Virus genome (UHGV): UHGV-0035288
Source of the DNA: a virus
DNA: 44,443 nt
Strand: one strand, 5' to 3'
The position numbers were made by a program, and so were the translations under genes. The notes beneath the pieces were generated by a model. That model was given only the letters and a program-made list of their open reading frames with translations. It had not been told where the DNA came from and searched no databases. Positions 30,992 to 35,022 of the stretch are shown in pieces. The first letter of the stretch is position 1; each line of letters starts with the position of its first letter.

Positions 30992-31031
30992 TGCAACCAA
31001 TATAGCAGGGTGCTGGAGTGGGTGCAACCAA
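30992..31031 (-). promoter_or_regulatory. promoter region with two TTGGTTGCA motifs (minus orientation)
   Basis: TGCAACCAA on plus at 30992-31000 and 31023-31031; same leader (TTGGTTGCACACCAACA..GAGGAC) as upstream of 20281. Confidence 0.5.
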
Positions 31032-31182
31032 TATTAATCACGCGCATGAAAAAGTTGATCGCTATCTGCTGTAACTGCAAACTGCATTTTTCACCCACCA
31101 TTCTGCAACGCGCATTGGTTGCCTAGTTCATCGACGACCGCAATTCGCATCTTGTTGCCGTGCGTTATGCAATCCCGGATTT

Positions 31183-31370
31183 TATGCAGTCTCAGACGAG
31201 GGGGGTGCCAGACCCCCCGTCTAGTCTGAAAGACTGGGGTGCTGTCCCGCTGTCCCGCTCCTCGCCAGGCCGCGTCATCCGGGGCGGGACGGGGGTGCTG
31301 TCCCGCTTTGTCCCGCCCCTGGTCTGTCCCGCTTTTTGTCCCGCTTACTTTATGCAGTTTTATTGCATAA
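31183..31370. repeat. iteron-rich element, copy 2
   Basis: Same hairpin (31188-31237) and TGTCCCGC repeats (31243, 31251, 31299, 31309, 31325, 31337; inverted GCGGGAC at 31284) as 14353-14520; in 480-bp intergenic gap downstream of primase-helicase. Confidence 0.8.
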
Positions 31371-31450
31371 CTATGCATTATACTCACACTACACGGCAAC
31401 CAACACGACCGACTAAAAGCACGCAAAATGGCAACCAATGCGCGCAAAAT

Positions 31451-33715
31451 TTAATCTTTTAAATCGTCATCGGTCGCTAAAAGCGTGATAGGGATATCCG
31501 ATTTGATGACCAAATTAGACGACCCATAGATGGCCCCGGTGTGTGGATCGGTGTAAAAACCTATCACTCCTCGCTCCACCATATCGTCGATTGCCTTCGT
31601 CGAAGTGCCACCTTTTGCCAGCCCAGCCTGGCGGACAATTGCCGATTTACTGAATCCAGTATGGTCCGGGTTATCTTCCATCAGTTTTTCCAGTGCCGCA
31701 TAAAGCACTTTCTCTTTTTCGTTGCGCGGTCCGGCGGTGTTCTCTTCCTTAACCGCGGCCTTGCCTGCCGCCTTCGCCTGTTCAATAGCGAACGGTGCCA
31801 GGGCAACCGGTACGAGGTAGAGAGTCTCGTCGCGTGGCGTGGAGGCAATCGGCTTGACGTCCCAACCGGCAACCACGTCACCGAAGTCTGGCCCGGTGCT
31901 GGTGGACTGGTGCGCCTCGAACGCCTCAGATTTGCGGAGATCCACCTTCACCTTGCACTTGAGCAGGACGAAGCCGCGCGGCGCTTGCTTGATGCCGTTA
32001 CGTGACTTCTCATGATACAGGTTCAATTGTCCGGGCTGGTTGTCGTCCGGCTGTTCCAGGAAGAACGCAGAATCGACAGCACCATGCAGCGCGCCGGACC
32101 CGCGTGGCGTTCTGCTGCCGTTTGCACCTTTAGCCGGGTGGTGGATGACGCCCGCACTGCCACCTGTATTTTCCGCGATGGCCTTCAGCGCTTTGACCAC
32201 TTCACCCATATCGCTGGCGTTGTTCTCGTCGAACGGTTTAGCCTCGGCGGACCGCAACGCAACAGTCTGGTTGAGTGAGTCGAACGCCACCAGGCCAACC
32301 GGTTCGCCATTAGCGGTGCGGTTGATAAAGCTGATAACTTCGCGCAAGCCCGATTTGCTGGTGATATCCCAGCCGCGTGACTGCAGATCGATAATGTGCA
32401 GCTTGTCCAGGTCGTGCTCATATTTAATCTGCAATGCTTCTTTACGCTGGTTGGAGGCTTCGCCACCTTCCGCGTCGAAATAGAAGCAATGAGACTGGAC
32501 GACCTTCGCACCGCCAAACGGAATACCCGCGGCAACCGCGCCCATCTGGCCCAGCACGTAGAAAGACTTACCGATATTCGACTCACCCGCCATGTACCAG
32601 GTCGATTTAAAGTTAATCAACCCCTCGATAATCGGGTCGTGCTTACTGAACAGCGCAACCGGCTCGTTATCCAGATCCGCATCGGTGCACCCGCCATATT
32701 CTTCGCCGTCGCCAACCGCATCAACAATATGTTCATATAAGGATTCGACTTCCTCGTCGTCCAGCCCCGGAAGGATGGCGGCGATTTGCTTACGGGACAT
32801 ATTGTGTGGCTCGACGTTCAGGTGGTCCGGTATCCCGATGAGACGTAGCGCCAGGTGCTGGTGTCTATTTAGCTCCGAGCAACACTCGTTGCCGGTGTGC
32901 ATACACTTGAAACGGATCTCGCCATCCTTAACCATGATAGCCGTCGACCCTTCGCCGCTGTGCAGATGTTCGTTCGGGCACGGCACTTCATAGCCCCGCC
33001 CGGAAGATAACTCCTCGAATCCTGCCTGGAAGCACCAGTCCAGAATGCCGTCTGCCACTGCGTCGTCGCCCTGGGTCAGTTCGCGGCGAACTTCCTCCTT
33101 CTCCACGCCCAACTTATCCGCCAGGCGGAGCAGACGACGGACGCGGGCGCGCTTGCCATAGTGGCACTTAATAACAGACTGCTGGTGTGGCAGGTACATC
33201 AGGCGGTTCGTGTCTTTCGTGCAATCGTCGAAGTCCACATCTGACAGACCCAGTTGGTGTAATAGTGCATACTGGACGCGGCCCAGGTCTTCTGCCGGTA
33301 CAGGCTTGTCCGTGAGCACCAGGAAACGGGCGCAACGCGTGCCGCCTTTCAGCGGGTGGCGGTCGCCGGTTGTGGTGTGAAAGACGTGCTCCAGTCCCGC
33401 GTCGATGAACGCCTTACGGCAGCGGCGTAGGGTGCGGGTGTCGGTACGGTCTATATCGAAGAACAGGATCGAGCGGTCCACCGCACTGGTCTTACGACGC
33501 AATCCGTCACTGGTATATGCCACGATGCCGTCGGCCTTACGCTTGCGGCGCGCATACTCGGCTTTATCTTCCGTTTTGTTGATATGCACCGAGGAGATTT
33601 CTTTCGCATCATTGATAAATTCGAAAAACTCTTCGGTAGTCATCTGGAAGTTTTCCGCCCTGGCTTTTTCGCCTTTTTTAGCGGGTCTTGTTACAGCGAA
33701 TTTAATTAAGCTCAT
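31451..33715 (-). CDS. DNA primase-helicase (N-terminal primase-polymerase-like domain, C-terminal P-loop helicase)
   Basis: 754 aa; Walker A-like GESNIGKS in C-terminal half, acidic and Cys/His-containing N-terminal half; ATG 33715. Confidence 0.75.
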   Translation of the reverse strand: MSLIKFAVTRPAKKGEKARAENFQMTTEEFFEFINDAKEISSVHINKTEDKAEYARRKRKADGIVAYTSDGLRRKTSAVDRSILFFDIDRTDTRTLRRCRKAFIDAGLEHVFHTTTGDRHPLKGGTRCARFLVLTDKPVPAEDLGRVQYALLHQLGLSDVDFDDCTKDTNRLMYLPHQQSVIKCHYGKRARVRRLLRLADKLGVEKEEVRRELTQGDDAVADGILDWCFQAGFEELSSGRGYEVPCPNEHLHSGEGSTAIMVKDGEIRFKCMHTGNECCSELNRHQHLALRLIGIPDHLNVEPHNMSRKQIAAILPGLDDEEVESLYEHIVDAVGDGEEYGGCTDADLDNEPVALFSKHDPIIEGLINFKSTWYMAGESNIGKSFYVLGQMGAVAAGIPFGGAKVVQSHCFYFDAEGGEASNQRKEALQIKYEHDLDKLHIIDLQSRGWDITSKSGLREVISFINRTANGEPVGLVAFDSLNQTVALRSAEAKPFDENNASDMGEVVKALKAIAENTGGSAGVIHHPAKGANGSRTPRGSGALHGAVDSAFFLEQPDDNQPGQLNLYHEKSRNGIKQAPRGFVLLKCKVKVDLRKSEAFEAHQSTSTGPDFGDVVAGWDVKPIASTPRDETLYLVPVALAPFAIEQAKAAGKAAVKEENTAGPRNEKEKVLYAALEKLMEDNPDHTGFSKSAIVRQAGLAKGGTSTKAIDDMVERGVIGFYTDPHTGAIYGSSNLVIKSDIPITLLATDDDLKD

Positions 33716-33725
33716 TGCCGTGGCC

Positions 33726-34055
33726 TTACTTAGAAGTTTTATTATTGCGTACCCAGGAGCGCACTGTGCTCTGATTAATTCCGGTCAACTCGGCAATCAT
33801 CGCCCAGGATTTGCCCTCGGCGCGCAAACGGATAACCTGCTTTTTGTATTCTTCCATTTCTTCATTGTGCTTTTGCAGCTTGCTGGCTGCCGTACCGTTG
33901 AGCAATTCCAGCCTGGCGCGTAATTCTTTTTCTACACTGCGCAGGCGCTCTACCTCAAATAGCACCGCCCCAACGGCATCGGTATAAGCCCATGACCGGC
34001 TTGTTTCACTGCTAACAGTCTTCGTTAACATTTCGATTGCGTCGTCGATATTCAT
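33726..34055 (-). CDS. HTH DNA-binding regulator
   Basis: 109 aa; C-terminal helix-turn-helix (SWAMIAELTGINQSTVRSWV); GAGGG SD; first gene of leftward transcription from divergent control region. Confidence 0.55.
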   Translation of the reverse strand: MNIDDAIEMLTKTVSSETSRSWAYTDAVGAVLFEVERLRSVEKELRARLELLNGTAASKLQKHNEEMEEYKKQVIRLRAEGKSWAMIAELTGINQSTVRSWVRNNKTSK

Positions 34056-34185
34056 TGCTCTGCCCTCAGTTGGTTAATGACCAACGAAACTACACCTAAA
34101 ACCGCAAGGTGTCAAATCCTTTGGATATTGAAACGGGCGCGCACGCGTGTAATAATAATTCCCGTCTCATTGTCTCTTATTGGTT

Positions 34186-34220
34186 AGCGCCGTTGCATTT
34201 TGCCTCGGCGCTTTTTTTTT
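34186..34220 (+). terminator. orphan rho-independent terminator in the divergent control region
   Basis: AGCGCCG-13 nt loop-CGGCGCT followed by T9 (34212-34220); no coding gene precedes it on the plus strand within 3 kb. Confidence 0.5.
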
Positions 34221-34231
34221 GAAATTAGTTG

Positions 34232-34260
34232 TTGACTCCCTTCTGCAACCAATCTAATAT
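34232..34260 (+). promoter_or_regulatory. strong sigma70-like early promoter (TTGACT-17-TAATAT)
   Basis: -35 TTGACT 34232-34237, 17-bp spacer containing GCAACCAAT, -10 TAATAT 34255-34260. Confidence 0.6.
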
Positions 34261-34458
34261 TCCCCTCGTCGACAGGATGCAGGACGCAAACTGGAGAGGG
34301 GCAACGCAGGGGCCGGATCGAAGTGTCGGGATTCCCAACCGTGATGATATAACCCGGTCCACTACCCGAACGGGAGAACGCGCAACCGGGCAATATGTTA
34401 AGGCCACCGACGAAGTTAACTGCCGACACCTAAACTTAACCAATCGGAGATATAAAAC

Positions 34459-34974
34459 ATGTTTGAACAAATCGTAAACCTGATTACTCGCGGCGTAGTA
34501 GCACTGGAAACCATCGCTAAGCATTATGAAACCGTTGGCGCTGCCGTTGGTAAGCAGGAAGACAAGAAGCCGTCTAAGGTGAAAAAAGAAGTCGTAGAAG
34601 ATGACGACGATGAAACCGAAGACGAAAAACCGGCGAAAACCAAAAAATCCACAGCGAAAGGCAAGGCCAAAAAAGAAGTCGTAGAAGATGACGACGATGA
34701 AGCCGAAGACGAAAAACCAGCGAAGGGTAAAAAAGCTCCGGCGAAAGGCAAAGGCAAGAAAGATGCCGATCCGCTGGCGGAGATGCGCGACGAAATCAAA
34801 CAATATGCCGCTATTATCGCTGGTGGTGACGACGACGACGCGAACGACGAATTTGACGACCTGCTGGAATCGTTCGAGATCAAATCAATCGCCAAGCTGG
34901 AAGATGAAGACGTCGAAGACTTCCACAAAGATCTTAAAGAAATCGTCGAAACTTATTTCGAACTGGAAGATTAA
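34459..34974 (+). CDS. highly acidic tandem-repeat protein (first early gene)
   Basis: GGAGA SD then ATG 34459; 171 aa; duplicated block KEVVEDDDDE(T/A)EDEKPAK (DNA repeat at about 34584-34634 and 34668-34718); strongly acidic overall. Confidence 0.6.
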   Translation: MFEQIVNLITRGVVALETIAKHYETVGAAVGKQEDKKPSKVKKEVVEDDDDETEDEKPAKTKKSTAKGKAKKEVVEDDDDEAEDEKPAKGKKAPAKGKGKKDADPLAEMRDEIKQYAAIIAGGDDDDANDEFDDLLESFEIKSIAKLEDEDVEDFHKDLKEIVETYFELED

Positions 34975-34981
34975 TATTATC

Positions 34982-35009
34982 CGGCCCGCTAATCTGCGGG
35001 CCTCTTTTT
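34982..35009 (+). terminator. rho-independent terminator
   Basis: GGCCCGC-TAATCT-GCGGGCC hairpin followed by TCTTTTT. Confidence 0.6.
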
Positions 35010-35022
35010 AGAGGACGAGACA

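Follow-up and report, generated by a model that had tools for sequence, protein, structure and literature searches.

A conserved structured RNA domain and a candidate small-RNA gene in the early control region of Dhillonviruses

Results

The early control region and its genes

The window analysed here, a stretch of 44,443 nt from a virus genome (UHGV-0035288), is a Dhillonvirus, i.e., an HK578-like coliphage and siphophage of E. coli. Over the 1.2 kb around the elements described below, more than 130 Dhillonvirus genomes share 93-95% identity with the window, among them those of BASEL and SECphi phages and of Sodalis phage SO-1. These elements lie in a divergent non-coding control region (Table 1). 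On its left side, an HTH protein and a primase-helicase are encoded in a divergent minus-strand operon, and on its right side the first plus-strand gene is followed by a replication and recombination operon on the same strand. An intrinsic-terminator-like hairpin lies directly behind this first gene, and the annotation of phage WF5505 has a terminator at the equivalent position. The minus operon has a candidate promoter with a perfect consensus -35 and a weak -10, which fell below the threshold of our promoter scan. The region is conserved in 17 Dhillonvirus sequences, and this promoter may drive the HTH/primase-helicase operon. Several GenBank records show 'hypothetical protein' open reading frames drawn over the structured RNA and the small-RNA promoter described below.

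Table 1 Features of the early control region and of the flanking genes
Feature	Position	Strand	Details
Primase-helicase gene	31451-33715	minus	754 aa; divergent operon with the HTH protein
HTH protein gene	33726-34055	minus	109 aa; Pfam HTH_23 and Sigma70_r4_2
Divergent non-coding control region	34056-34458		403 bp; contains hairpin, promoters and leader
Candidate promoter of the minus operon	34087-34115	minus	TTGACA (reverse complement of 34110-34115), 17-nt spacer, TAGTTT (reverse complement of 34087-34092)
Candidate small-RNA promoter	34128-34156	plus	TTGAAA (34128-33), 17-nt spacer, (TGt)AATAAT (34151-56); extended -10
Candidate small RNA	34164-34220	plus	about 57 nt; start at 34164 predicted
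Small RNA, unpaired conserved 5′ part	34164-34185	plus
Small RNA, terminator hairpin	34186-34212	plus	AGCGCCG (34186-92)/CGGCGCU (34206-12); inner 3-bp GCA/UGC stem
Small RNA, U9 tail	34212-34220	plus	nine T in the DNA
Early promoter, sigma-70-type	34232-34260	plus	TTGACT (34232-37), 17-nt spacer, TAATAT (34255-60); predicted start G34268, 7-8 nt after the -10
Structured RNA domain	34268-34427	plus	160 nt; comparative structure and covariance model
P1 closing helix	34268-75/34420-27	plus
P2 hairpin	34278-80/34286-88	plus	loop AGGAC here; AGGAY across lineages
P4 long-range helix, tentative	34298-302/34403-08	plus
P3 hairpin	34309-18/34325-36	plus	loop CGAAGU here; CGWAGU across lineages
Arm, Pc	34346-51/34394-99	plus
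Arm, Pb	34353-58/34385-90	plus
Arm, Pa	34365-67/34372-74	plus	loop GAAC here; mostly GNRA type across lineages
Arm, conserved internal loop			CACUA/AGAACGC here; CACUM/AGAACGC across lineages
Linker, A/C-rich, unstructured	34428-34458	plus	Shine-Dalgarno GGAG at 34446-49
First plus-strand gene	34459-34974	plus	171 aa, acidic, lysine-rich; PHROG 3127
Intrinsic-terminator-like hairpin	34983-35010	plus	GGCCCGC/GCGGGCC and TCTTTTT; directly 3′ of the first gene

The original prediction had placed a near-consensus promoter shortly behind a terminator hairpin, and an untranslated leader of about 190 nt between this promoter and the first early gene. Both are present: the early promoter begins after a gap of 11 nt from the T-run of the hairpin, and the ATG at 34459 lies 191 nt from the predicted +1 and 198 nt from the -10 hexamer. 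Bare motif matches carry little weight here. A 5-kb region contained 4 promoter-like and 7 terminator-like matches compared to 3.7 and 6.5 in shuffled sequences, i.e., no excess. Because such matches are no commoner than in shuffles, the significance of the elements rests on their conservation.

The leader had been thought to hold a single ATG-initiated reading frame. In fact, it has three ATGs, at 34277 (66 aa), 34344 (2 aa) and 34395 (12 aa), and none of these frames is conserved in relatives. We rejected protein coding by the leader, be it through the 66-aa frame or through minus-strand open reading frames: these frames are not conserved, the insertions and deletions that distinguish the lineages have lengths not divisible by three, and changes in the helices described below are compensatory.

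A structured RNA domain in the early leader

In a sensitive BLAST search with the intergenic region all Dhillonviruses were matched, and outside them only the stretch 34279-34440 was found. In an alignment of five lineages, invariant blocks (GGAGAGGRGYRACGCWGGGG, UCGWAGU, AUUCCYAACCGUGA, CACU, AGAACGC and AGGCYRCCGACGARG) alternate with blocks that differ and yet stay complementary to each other. About 60 positions never vary, even between genera of phages that otherwise have no DNA similarity to each other. We extended the alignment beyond the BLAST matches with sequences from IMG/VR, one genome contig and metagenomes, which were filtered with a profile. The structure was revealed only by hand-built comparative analysis, and RNAalifold on the raw alignment found little structure. 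The resulting model consists of a closing helix P1, two hairpins (P2 and P3), an arm made up of Pc, Pb and Pa, and a tentative long-range helix P4. Its invariant junction strands are AACGCA, AACCGUGA, CACU/AGAACGC and CCGACGAAG. The plus strand is the folded one, as the model contains invariant G-U pairs.

A covariance model built on this structure found one copy in the window (34265-34432, 148.6 bits, E ~4e-39) and one copy in each of 35 other loci. In the alignment fitted to the model, 88.9% of the cells of the helices could pair, compared to 73.0% after shuffling, a value that none of 500 shuffles reached; controls with slid helices gave 28-43%. The result was similar with a MAFFT alignment not fitted to the model: 84.0% against 73.0% (0 of 500 shuffles, slid controls 25-45%). 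Both sides had changed in 26 of the 41 pairs in the model-fitted alignment and in 21 of 41 in the MAFFT alignment. The variation is spread over several helices. P1 occurs in at least eight different helix sequences among the lineages, Pb has 4-5 pair types per position, and Pa and Pc covary. P3 carries compensatory changes in single lineages, namely A-U to U-A in KA2-1, G-C to A-U in KMI8 and C-G to U-A in locus L157. The Pc-Pb-Pa arm was recovered independently by RNAalifold. The same program proposed two further pairings in the core, which we rejected: variants in KA2-1 and L157 disrupt the one between columns 62-69 and 78-87, and they back P3 pairs that the one between columns 48-53 and 143-149 overlaps.

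P4 has to be regarded as tentative, because its only G-C to A-U switch coincides with the division of Dhillonviruses from all other lineages and is therefore phylogenetically confounded. We had considered the covariation R39-Y146 as proof of this helix and downgraded it, since many unrelated column pairs show the identical split of Dhillonviruses versus the rest. More generally, sequence diversity is low (about 8-10 lineages), which places the invariant core, i.e., P4, lower P3 and the junctions, beyond the resolution of the analysis. Structure prediction and covariation across relatives had been proposed as checks on the leader. The minimum free energy fold of the single sequence was no better than those of shuffled sequences on either strand (z = +0.70 and +0.39), whereas covariation across relatives was strong.

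The domain has a fixed position relative to the promoter. In nearly every lineage, conservation of the RNA sets in 7-8 nt behind the end of a -10-like hexamer (5/6 matches), and several lineages also have a consensus -35; in BUCT618, the sequence TTGACA-16-TATAGT occupies the equal relative position. Because of this position of the -10 hexamer, the RNA is predicted to begin at, or at most 3 nt from, the transcription start. Conservation ends after the 3′ strand of P1. Behind it comes an A/C-rich linker of about 25-75 nt, whose sequence is lineage-specific, and then the ribosome-binding site (RBS). The motif ACC(A) often stands directly after P1, though not in every lineage.

To summarize, the leader is, by comparative sequence analysis, a structured RNA domain of about 160 nt in which P1, P2, P3 and the three-part arm are well supported. 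The original prediction had named a structured regulatory RNA as one possibility for the leader. A conserved, covarying multi-helix structure, found in many genera, bears out the structural part of this suggestion, whereas regulation of the downstream gene is somewhat disfavoured by the data presented below.

Distribution of the structured RNA

The RNA was found in 172 phage records, about 148 of which are Dhillonviruses (out of 155 Dhillonvirus records), and it is common to at least eight phage genera. It is present in Warwickvirus (tunus, swan01), Hanrivervirus (slyngel), Changchunvirus (PHB17), Murrayvirus (Lumpael), Sortsnevirus (IME279) and Jilinvirus (PT1), as well as in unclassified phages of Serratia (MQ-4), Klebsiella (KA2-1, KMI8), Enterobacter (Arya) and E. 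coli (BUCT618). The DNA flanking the matches outside Dhillonviruses is unrelated to the window. In every record that we examined, a gap of about 240 nt without annotation holds the RNA, which is on the sense strand of the flanking genes.

A few Dhillonviruses cleanly lack the RNA. In WF5505 (where the missing part corresponds to about 34276-34419) and in LM40P1, its core is absent, and the promoter, a P1 stub, the RBS and the gene are retained. The covariance model detected no copy anywhere in the genome of WF5505, so that relocation of the RNA can be ruled out for this phage, the sole one checked. The RNA is thus dispensable in some Dhillonvirus members. Among virulent enterobacterial phages, it appears to be exchanged as a unit with its host-type promoter.

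Neither 5,426 complete E. coli genomes nor the PLSDB plasmids contained the RNA, and we therefore rejected a host origin. A pattern scan of one genome per species (185,579 species) had a single match, the 42.7-kb phage-like contig L170 binned into a Cereibacter MAG. Scans with gapped patterns added only L157, this contig and near-identical metagenome copies, and no distant relatives of the RNA were found by pattern scans. A search for wider homologues with the 15-mer AGGCYACCGACGAAG hit more than 120 viral contigs, all of which proved to be chance matches.

The domain also resembles no known RNA family that we searched. Rfam 15 (4227 models) gave no match in the whole window at gathering thresholds. 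When the region 34100-34500 was searched with E-values up to 10, only sub-threshold chance matches over the terminator region appeared, and none over 34265-34432; four other lineages gave no match at E up to 1. ARAGORN detected no tRNA or tmRNA in the window. In the literature, we found no paper with sequence strings of the RNA, and no Dhillonvirus transcriptome or RNA motif. We conclude that the 160-nt RNA is a new RNA family without an Rfam relative.

Downstream genes and the search for an expression platform

The first genes after the RNA fall into seven PHROGs or outside any, and Pfam gave no match for them. Even the first-gene proteins of about 300 aa in Lumpael, tunus and PT1 are mutually unrelated. 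A link of the RNA to a downstream gene family was therefore rejected. We found no terminator after the RNA domain, and no helix masking the Shine-Dalgarno sequence (SD) that is conserved across lineages. Free-standing RNA genes usually have a terminator of their own, and its lack is in keeping with a cis-acting leader. As an alternative to forming P1, the 3′ strand of this helix in Dhillonviruses (CUGCCGA) could pair with UCGGAG at the SD; this alternative pairing is lost in Dhillonvirus variants with the 3′ strand GGUCGAC.

These data bear on the possibility of a cis-acting sensor: as a riboswitch or protein-binding element of the leader, the domain would bind a metabolite, an alarmone or a protein of phage or host and thereby alter translation or elongation in the early operon. 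Of the properties of a riboswitch, a conserved structured aptamer in the 5′ UTR was found, whereas a conserved expression platform and a coherent set of downstream genes were not. The location directly before the RBS in every lineage is what one would expect of such a sensor, and the combination of covarying variable helices with invariant junction strands is typical for aptamers. Moreover, two similar G-rich strands in the invariant core could compete for one partner strand, and both the missing terminator and the alternative P1/SD pairing in Dhillonviruses suit a cis-acting element. However, this pairing is not kept in the GGUCGAC variants, no terminator or SD-masking helix is shared across lineages, and the linker differs in length and sequence. 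The downstream genes are unrelated, relatives without the element retain promoter, RBS and gene, and no riboswitch model of Rfam matches even at E up to 10. We consider a cis-acting sensor to be a serious alternative, though a rather doubtful one.

A candidate small-RNA gene upstream of the early promoter

The hairpin upstream of the early promoter had been described as a terminator with a T9 run that has no plus-strand gene in front of it. Hairpin and T-run can be read directly from the sequence at 34186-34220, as claimed. The fold has a free energy of -16.4 kcal/mol (z = -3.26), and none of 200 shuffled sequences folded as well; the program terminator scan overlooked it because its loop limit is 8 nt. 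As for the missing gene, there are indeed no plus-strand protein genes upstream of the hairpin for 31 kb, but the description overlooked a better promoter match on the same strand. This promoter, situated 30 nt 5′ of the hairpin, has 10/12 consensus matches in the promoter scan, and the TG is present. With a conserved extended -10 promoter so close upstream, the terminator is not orphan, and the two elements define a candidate small RNA (sRNA).

All 155 Dhillonvirus records contain the stretch 34128-34220, mostly with at least 95% identity. Across 17 unique Dhillonvirus sequences and the divergent LM40P1, neither promoter hexamer changes, whereas there is variation in the spacer and in the bases after the -10; the 22 nt following these variable bases are again invariant in the 17 sequences. 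In LM40P1, the hairpin stem AGCGCCG/CGGCGCU is replaced by AUCCCCG/CGGGGAU, which corresponds to two compensatory changes (G-C to U-A and G-C to C-G). The hairpin has a variable loop, but a U-run of 8-13 that is never lost in the Dhillonvirus sequences including LM40P1. A compensatory stem, a variable loop, a maintained U-run and invariant hexamers around a variable spacer argue for a small-RNA gene, and the stretch has a conserved promoter and a Rho-independent terminator of its own, by which bacterial-type sRNAs are recognized. Apart from the sub-threshold chance matches mentioned above, no Rfam family, including C4 and any sRNA family, was found in 34100-34500 at E up to 10, and E. coli genomes contained no match. 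We conclude that 34164-34220 is probably a small-RNA gene with its own promoter and a predicted transcript on the strand of the early genes.

The 5′ part of this RNA suggests a target. The seed 34171-34186 is complementary to 34437-34452, which covers the SD of the first early gene, with a duplex of 15 bp (including 2 G-U) and 1 mismatch (-17.2 kcal/mol). The pairing is only moderately unusual: 0.3% of shuffled targets and 3% of the 41-nt windows of the genome pair as well, and it is weaker in LM40P1. Among 17 close Dhillonviruses, the sole substitution in the seed (L001) and the sole substitution in the target (L015) both fall on the mismatched position. By such pairing with the RBS, the small RNA would lower or time translation of the first gene, as c4 RNA does in phage P1; action on this RBS is a reasonable but unproven inference. 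The idea that the terminator ends a small antisense RNA survives in part: there is probably a small RNA, but not a cis-antisense one, as its promoter is on the same strand and its seed would pair with the RBS in trans or over a long range.

Alternatively, the hairpin and U9 could be an insulator or attenuator that keeps stray plus-strand transcription, including that from the 34128 promoter, away from the early promoter, or the DNA itself could be bound by a protein, as an operator or origin for the HTH protein or the primase-helicase. The order terminator-promoter-RNA recurs in BUCT618, whose terminator closes a real gene in front of it, in line with insulation. Palindromes and five copies of RTTGGTY within 380 bp, adjoining the replication genes, could point to a DNA site; the excess of RTTGGTY in the whole genome is, however, marginal (33 versus 21 expected, with 2 of 100 shuffles reaching this number). 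Also against these readings stand the 31 kb without plus-strand genes and the combination of compensatory stem, variable loop, maintained U-run and invariant hexamers around a variable spacer, which is the pattern of a transcribed RNA gene and not of a DNA site. We regard an insulator or a DNA site as rather unlikely. Insulation is possible as a side effect of the hairpin and is not needed to explain it.

Discussion

What does the structured RNA do? With a confidence somewhat below even, we favour the view that the 160-nt domain is an autonomous, horizontally mobile, partner-binding RNA module and not a classical riboswitch, because the genes behind it are unrelated, no terminator or SD-masking helix is conserved, and natural deletions spare the promoter and the RBS. 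In the proposed sequence of events, the early promoter would start transcription at about G34268, the first base of P1, and the RNA, forming the 5′-terminal part of the early transcript, would be made abundantly soon after infection. Probably it would function as a stable 5′ fragment, because P1 encloses its 5′ end and the domain is followed by an A/U/C-rich linker. Its partner would be one that all enterobacterial hosts share, be it a protein or machine of the host or a small molecule; the approximately 60 invariant positions across genera suggest a specific partner of this kind. Host takeover or counter-defence would be a more likely purpose of the RNA than control of the downstream gene. 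We infer a trans-acting role mainly from negative evidence, i.e., from the lack of an expression platform and the unrelated downstream genes.

A simpler explanation would be that the domain is a mere 5′ stabilizer or translation enhancer, in which a 5′-terminal helix blocks decay that depends on the 5′ end and the linker recruits ribosomes. This would agree with P1 beginning at or at most 3 nt from the predicted 5′ end in all lineages and with the unstructured, A/C-rich linkers. Nevertheless, a protective hairpin needs neither 160 nt nor about 60 invariant positions, nor junctions and internal loops conserved across genera, and we find this explanation improbable. Least probable of all is a put-like antitermination element that acts on the nascent RNA and carries its own polymerase through terminators of the early operon: it would suit the promoter-proximal position in the early operon, the intrinsic terminator after the first gene (34983-35002), the four annotated terminators in the homologous operon of WF5505 and the one 1.3 kb downstream in BUCT618, but WF5505 and LM40P1 keep the promoter without the RNA (WF5505 also the operon and its terminators), no terminator-like sites were found downstream in Lumpael and tunus, and a 160-nt multi-helix junction is unlike the two-hairpin put RNAs.

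As for the partner of the autonomous module, highly conserved structured RNAs usually have a precise one. As a speculation that we would give little chance in this specific form, the domain could be a phage aptamer or decoy, either for a small molecule that reports the infection state (e.g., an alarmone or an immune signalling nucleotide) or for a host protein of defence or gene expression; the promoter-RNA cassette would be exchanged among virulent phage genera as a means against host responses, and the small RNA would be a second, Dhillonvirus-specific regulator of early translation.

If the RNA binds a host factor or a signalling molecule, an RNA-based tool would be added to the means of phage takeover or counter-defence, and if the decoy or aptamer reading is true, the RNA would be an RNA-based accessory 'anti-host' gene. 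New structured RNA classes are rare in E. coli systems, the best-studied ones. The function is testable at once, because the RNA is carried by phages of laboratory collections (TheodorHerzl and KarlBarth of BASEL, SECphi4, SECphi18 and HK578) and natural deletion variants exist. For annotation, our results affect the GenBank open reading frames drawn over the RNA and over the small-RNA promoter.

Phages have several RNAs with which the two elements can be compared. The c4 RNA of phages P1 and P7 is cut out of an operon transcript, and sar of P22 and OOP of lambda are cis-antisense RNAs of the opposite strand. The small RNA at 34164-34220 is likewise short, encoded just upstream of an RBS in the same region and complementary to it; in contrast to these RNAs, it has its own promoter and terminator, lies on the same strand and pairs imperfectly. 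The put RNAs of the lambdoid phage HK022 are cis-acting antitermination RNAs of about 65-70 nt with two hairpins. Like them, the 160-nt RNA is a phage RNA located directly after an early promoter that would act as RNA, not through a protein, but it is longer, has up to seven helices (one of them tentative) and has no sequence relation to put. GOLLD and ROOL, phage-associated RNAs of several hundred nucleotides from other bacterial groups that have Rfam families, are likewise highly conserved structured RNAs carried by phages; we found no similarity between them and the 160-nt RNA. The closest general resemblance is to the motif and riboswitch aptamers of Rfam, with which the domain shares a multi-helix junction, covarying stems, invariant joining strands, a place in the 5′ UTR and discovery solely through conservation. 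It differs from them in having no Rfam 15 match, no conserved expression platform and no related downstream genes, and in being confined to virulent enterobacterial siphophages, where it is always fused to its own promoter.

Possible operator sites in the divergent control region

The control region between the HTH gene and the first early gene contains three palindromes, and we consider them possible operator sites for the adjoining HTH protein. Five copies of the heptamer RTTGGTY are found in 380 bp of the same region (34069-34444). In the whole genome it occurs 33 times where 21 would be expected; two of 100 shuffles have as many, and a further cluster of the heptamer lies at 30995-31439.

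Table. Positions of control-region palindromes, annotated ORFs and hairpins flanking the structured RNA. L-numbers denote sequences from other phages or contigs compared with the window; the ORFs are those of public annotations.
Feature	Sequence	Position	Remark
Palindrome TTGGTTAATGACCAA	Window	34070-34084	Within the 5' UTR of the HTH gene
Palindrome ATCCTTTGGAT	Window	34116-34126	Flanked by two back-to-back -35 boxes
Palindrome CACGCGTG	Window	34142-34149	Within the spacer of the small-RNA promoter
ORF over non-coding RNA	Window	34077-34187
ORF over non-coding RNA	L001	3378-3488
ORF over non-coding RNA	L150 (Salmonella phage PT1)	2485-2691	68 aa, minus strand
ORF bas14_0049			36 aa; covers promoter and seed of the small RNA
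ORF gp46	Phage SO-1		Overlies the structured RNA
AATAGCAC motif	L002	about 2415-2440
AATAGCAC motif	L151, L152, L154, L157, L003		Upstream of the structured RNA
Extra G+C-rich hairpin	L149 (Serratia phage MQ-4)	about 2665-2700	No U-run
Extra G+C-rich hairpin	L150	about 2665-2700	No U-run

Database annotation of the RNA region

In public annotations, short 'hypothetical protein' ORFs are placed on top of both the candidate small RNA and the structured RNA; these ORFs are probably not genes. One metagenome-assembled genome assigned to Cereibacter sphaeroides includes a contig (L170, QFQS01000013.1) with the structured RNA, nearly identical there to the form of Klebsiella phage IME279. With 42,764 bp this contig is as long as a phage genome, and it is probably a phage genome that was put in the wrong bin. 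Since the records of Campylobacter phage A144 (MG065648.1), Acinetobacter phage NJ01 (OQ221563.1) and Sodalis phage SO-1 (NC_013600.1) share 94-97% identity with coliphages in the region studied here, their host labels deserve caution. The 88.6-kb record of P-GXEC-L2P5 (PQ843332.1) contains several copies of this region and may be a concatenated assembly.

Tandem repeat in the first early gene

The first early gene carries an 87-bp tandem duplication (34582-34763; 2.1 copies, 86% identical) encoding the repeated segment KKEVVEDDDDExEDEKPAK. Its product has 171 aa, whereas the TheodorHerzl homologue has 143 aa, and the copy number of the repeat therefore seems to vary between phages.

Sequences flanking the structured RNA

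Among T1-like phages and in the Lumpael lineage, the AATAGCAC motif is conserved ahead of the promoter of the structured RNA, often within a small hairpin with T's behind it (AGUGCUAAAUAGCACUUUUU). Thus the cassette that the phages share seems to reach about 60 nt upstream, and it may carry its own upstream terminator.

On the downstream side, an extra G+C-rich hairpin stands between the structured RNA and the start codon of Serratia phage MQ-4, where it reads GCCCCGG-UACG-CCGGGGC, and of Salmonella phage PT1. It could be either a regulatory hairpin specific to the lineage or a 3' stabiliser of a processed RNA. ACC(A) often stands 3' of the closing helix P1, but not in every lineage. The linkers that lead from the structured RNA to the ribosome-binding site (34428-34445 in the window, and their equivalents in other lineages) are A/C-rich, and many contain ACUUUAA or ACUUAA, a sequence similar to the 'epsilon' element that enhances translation of T7 gene 10.
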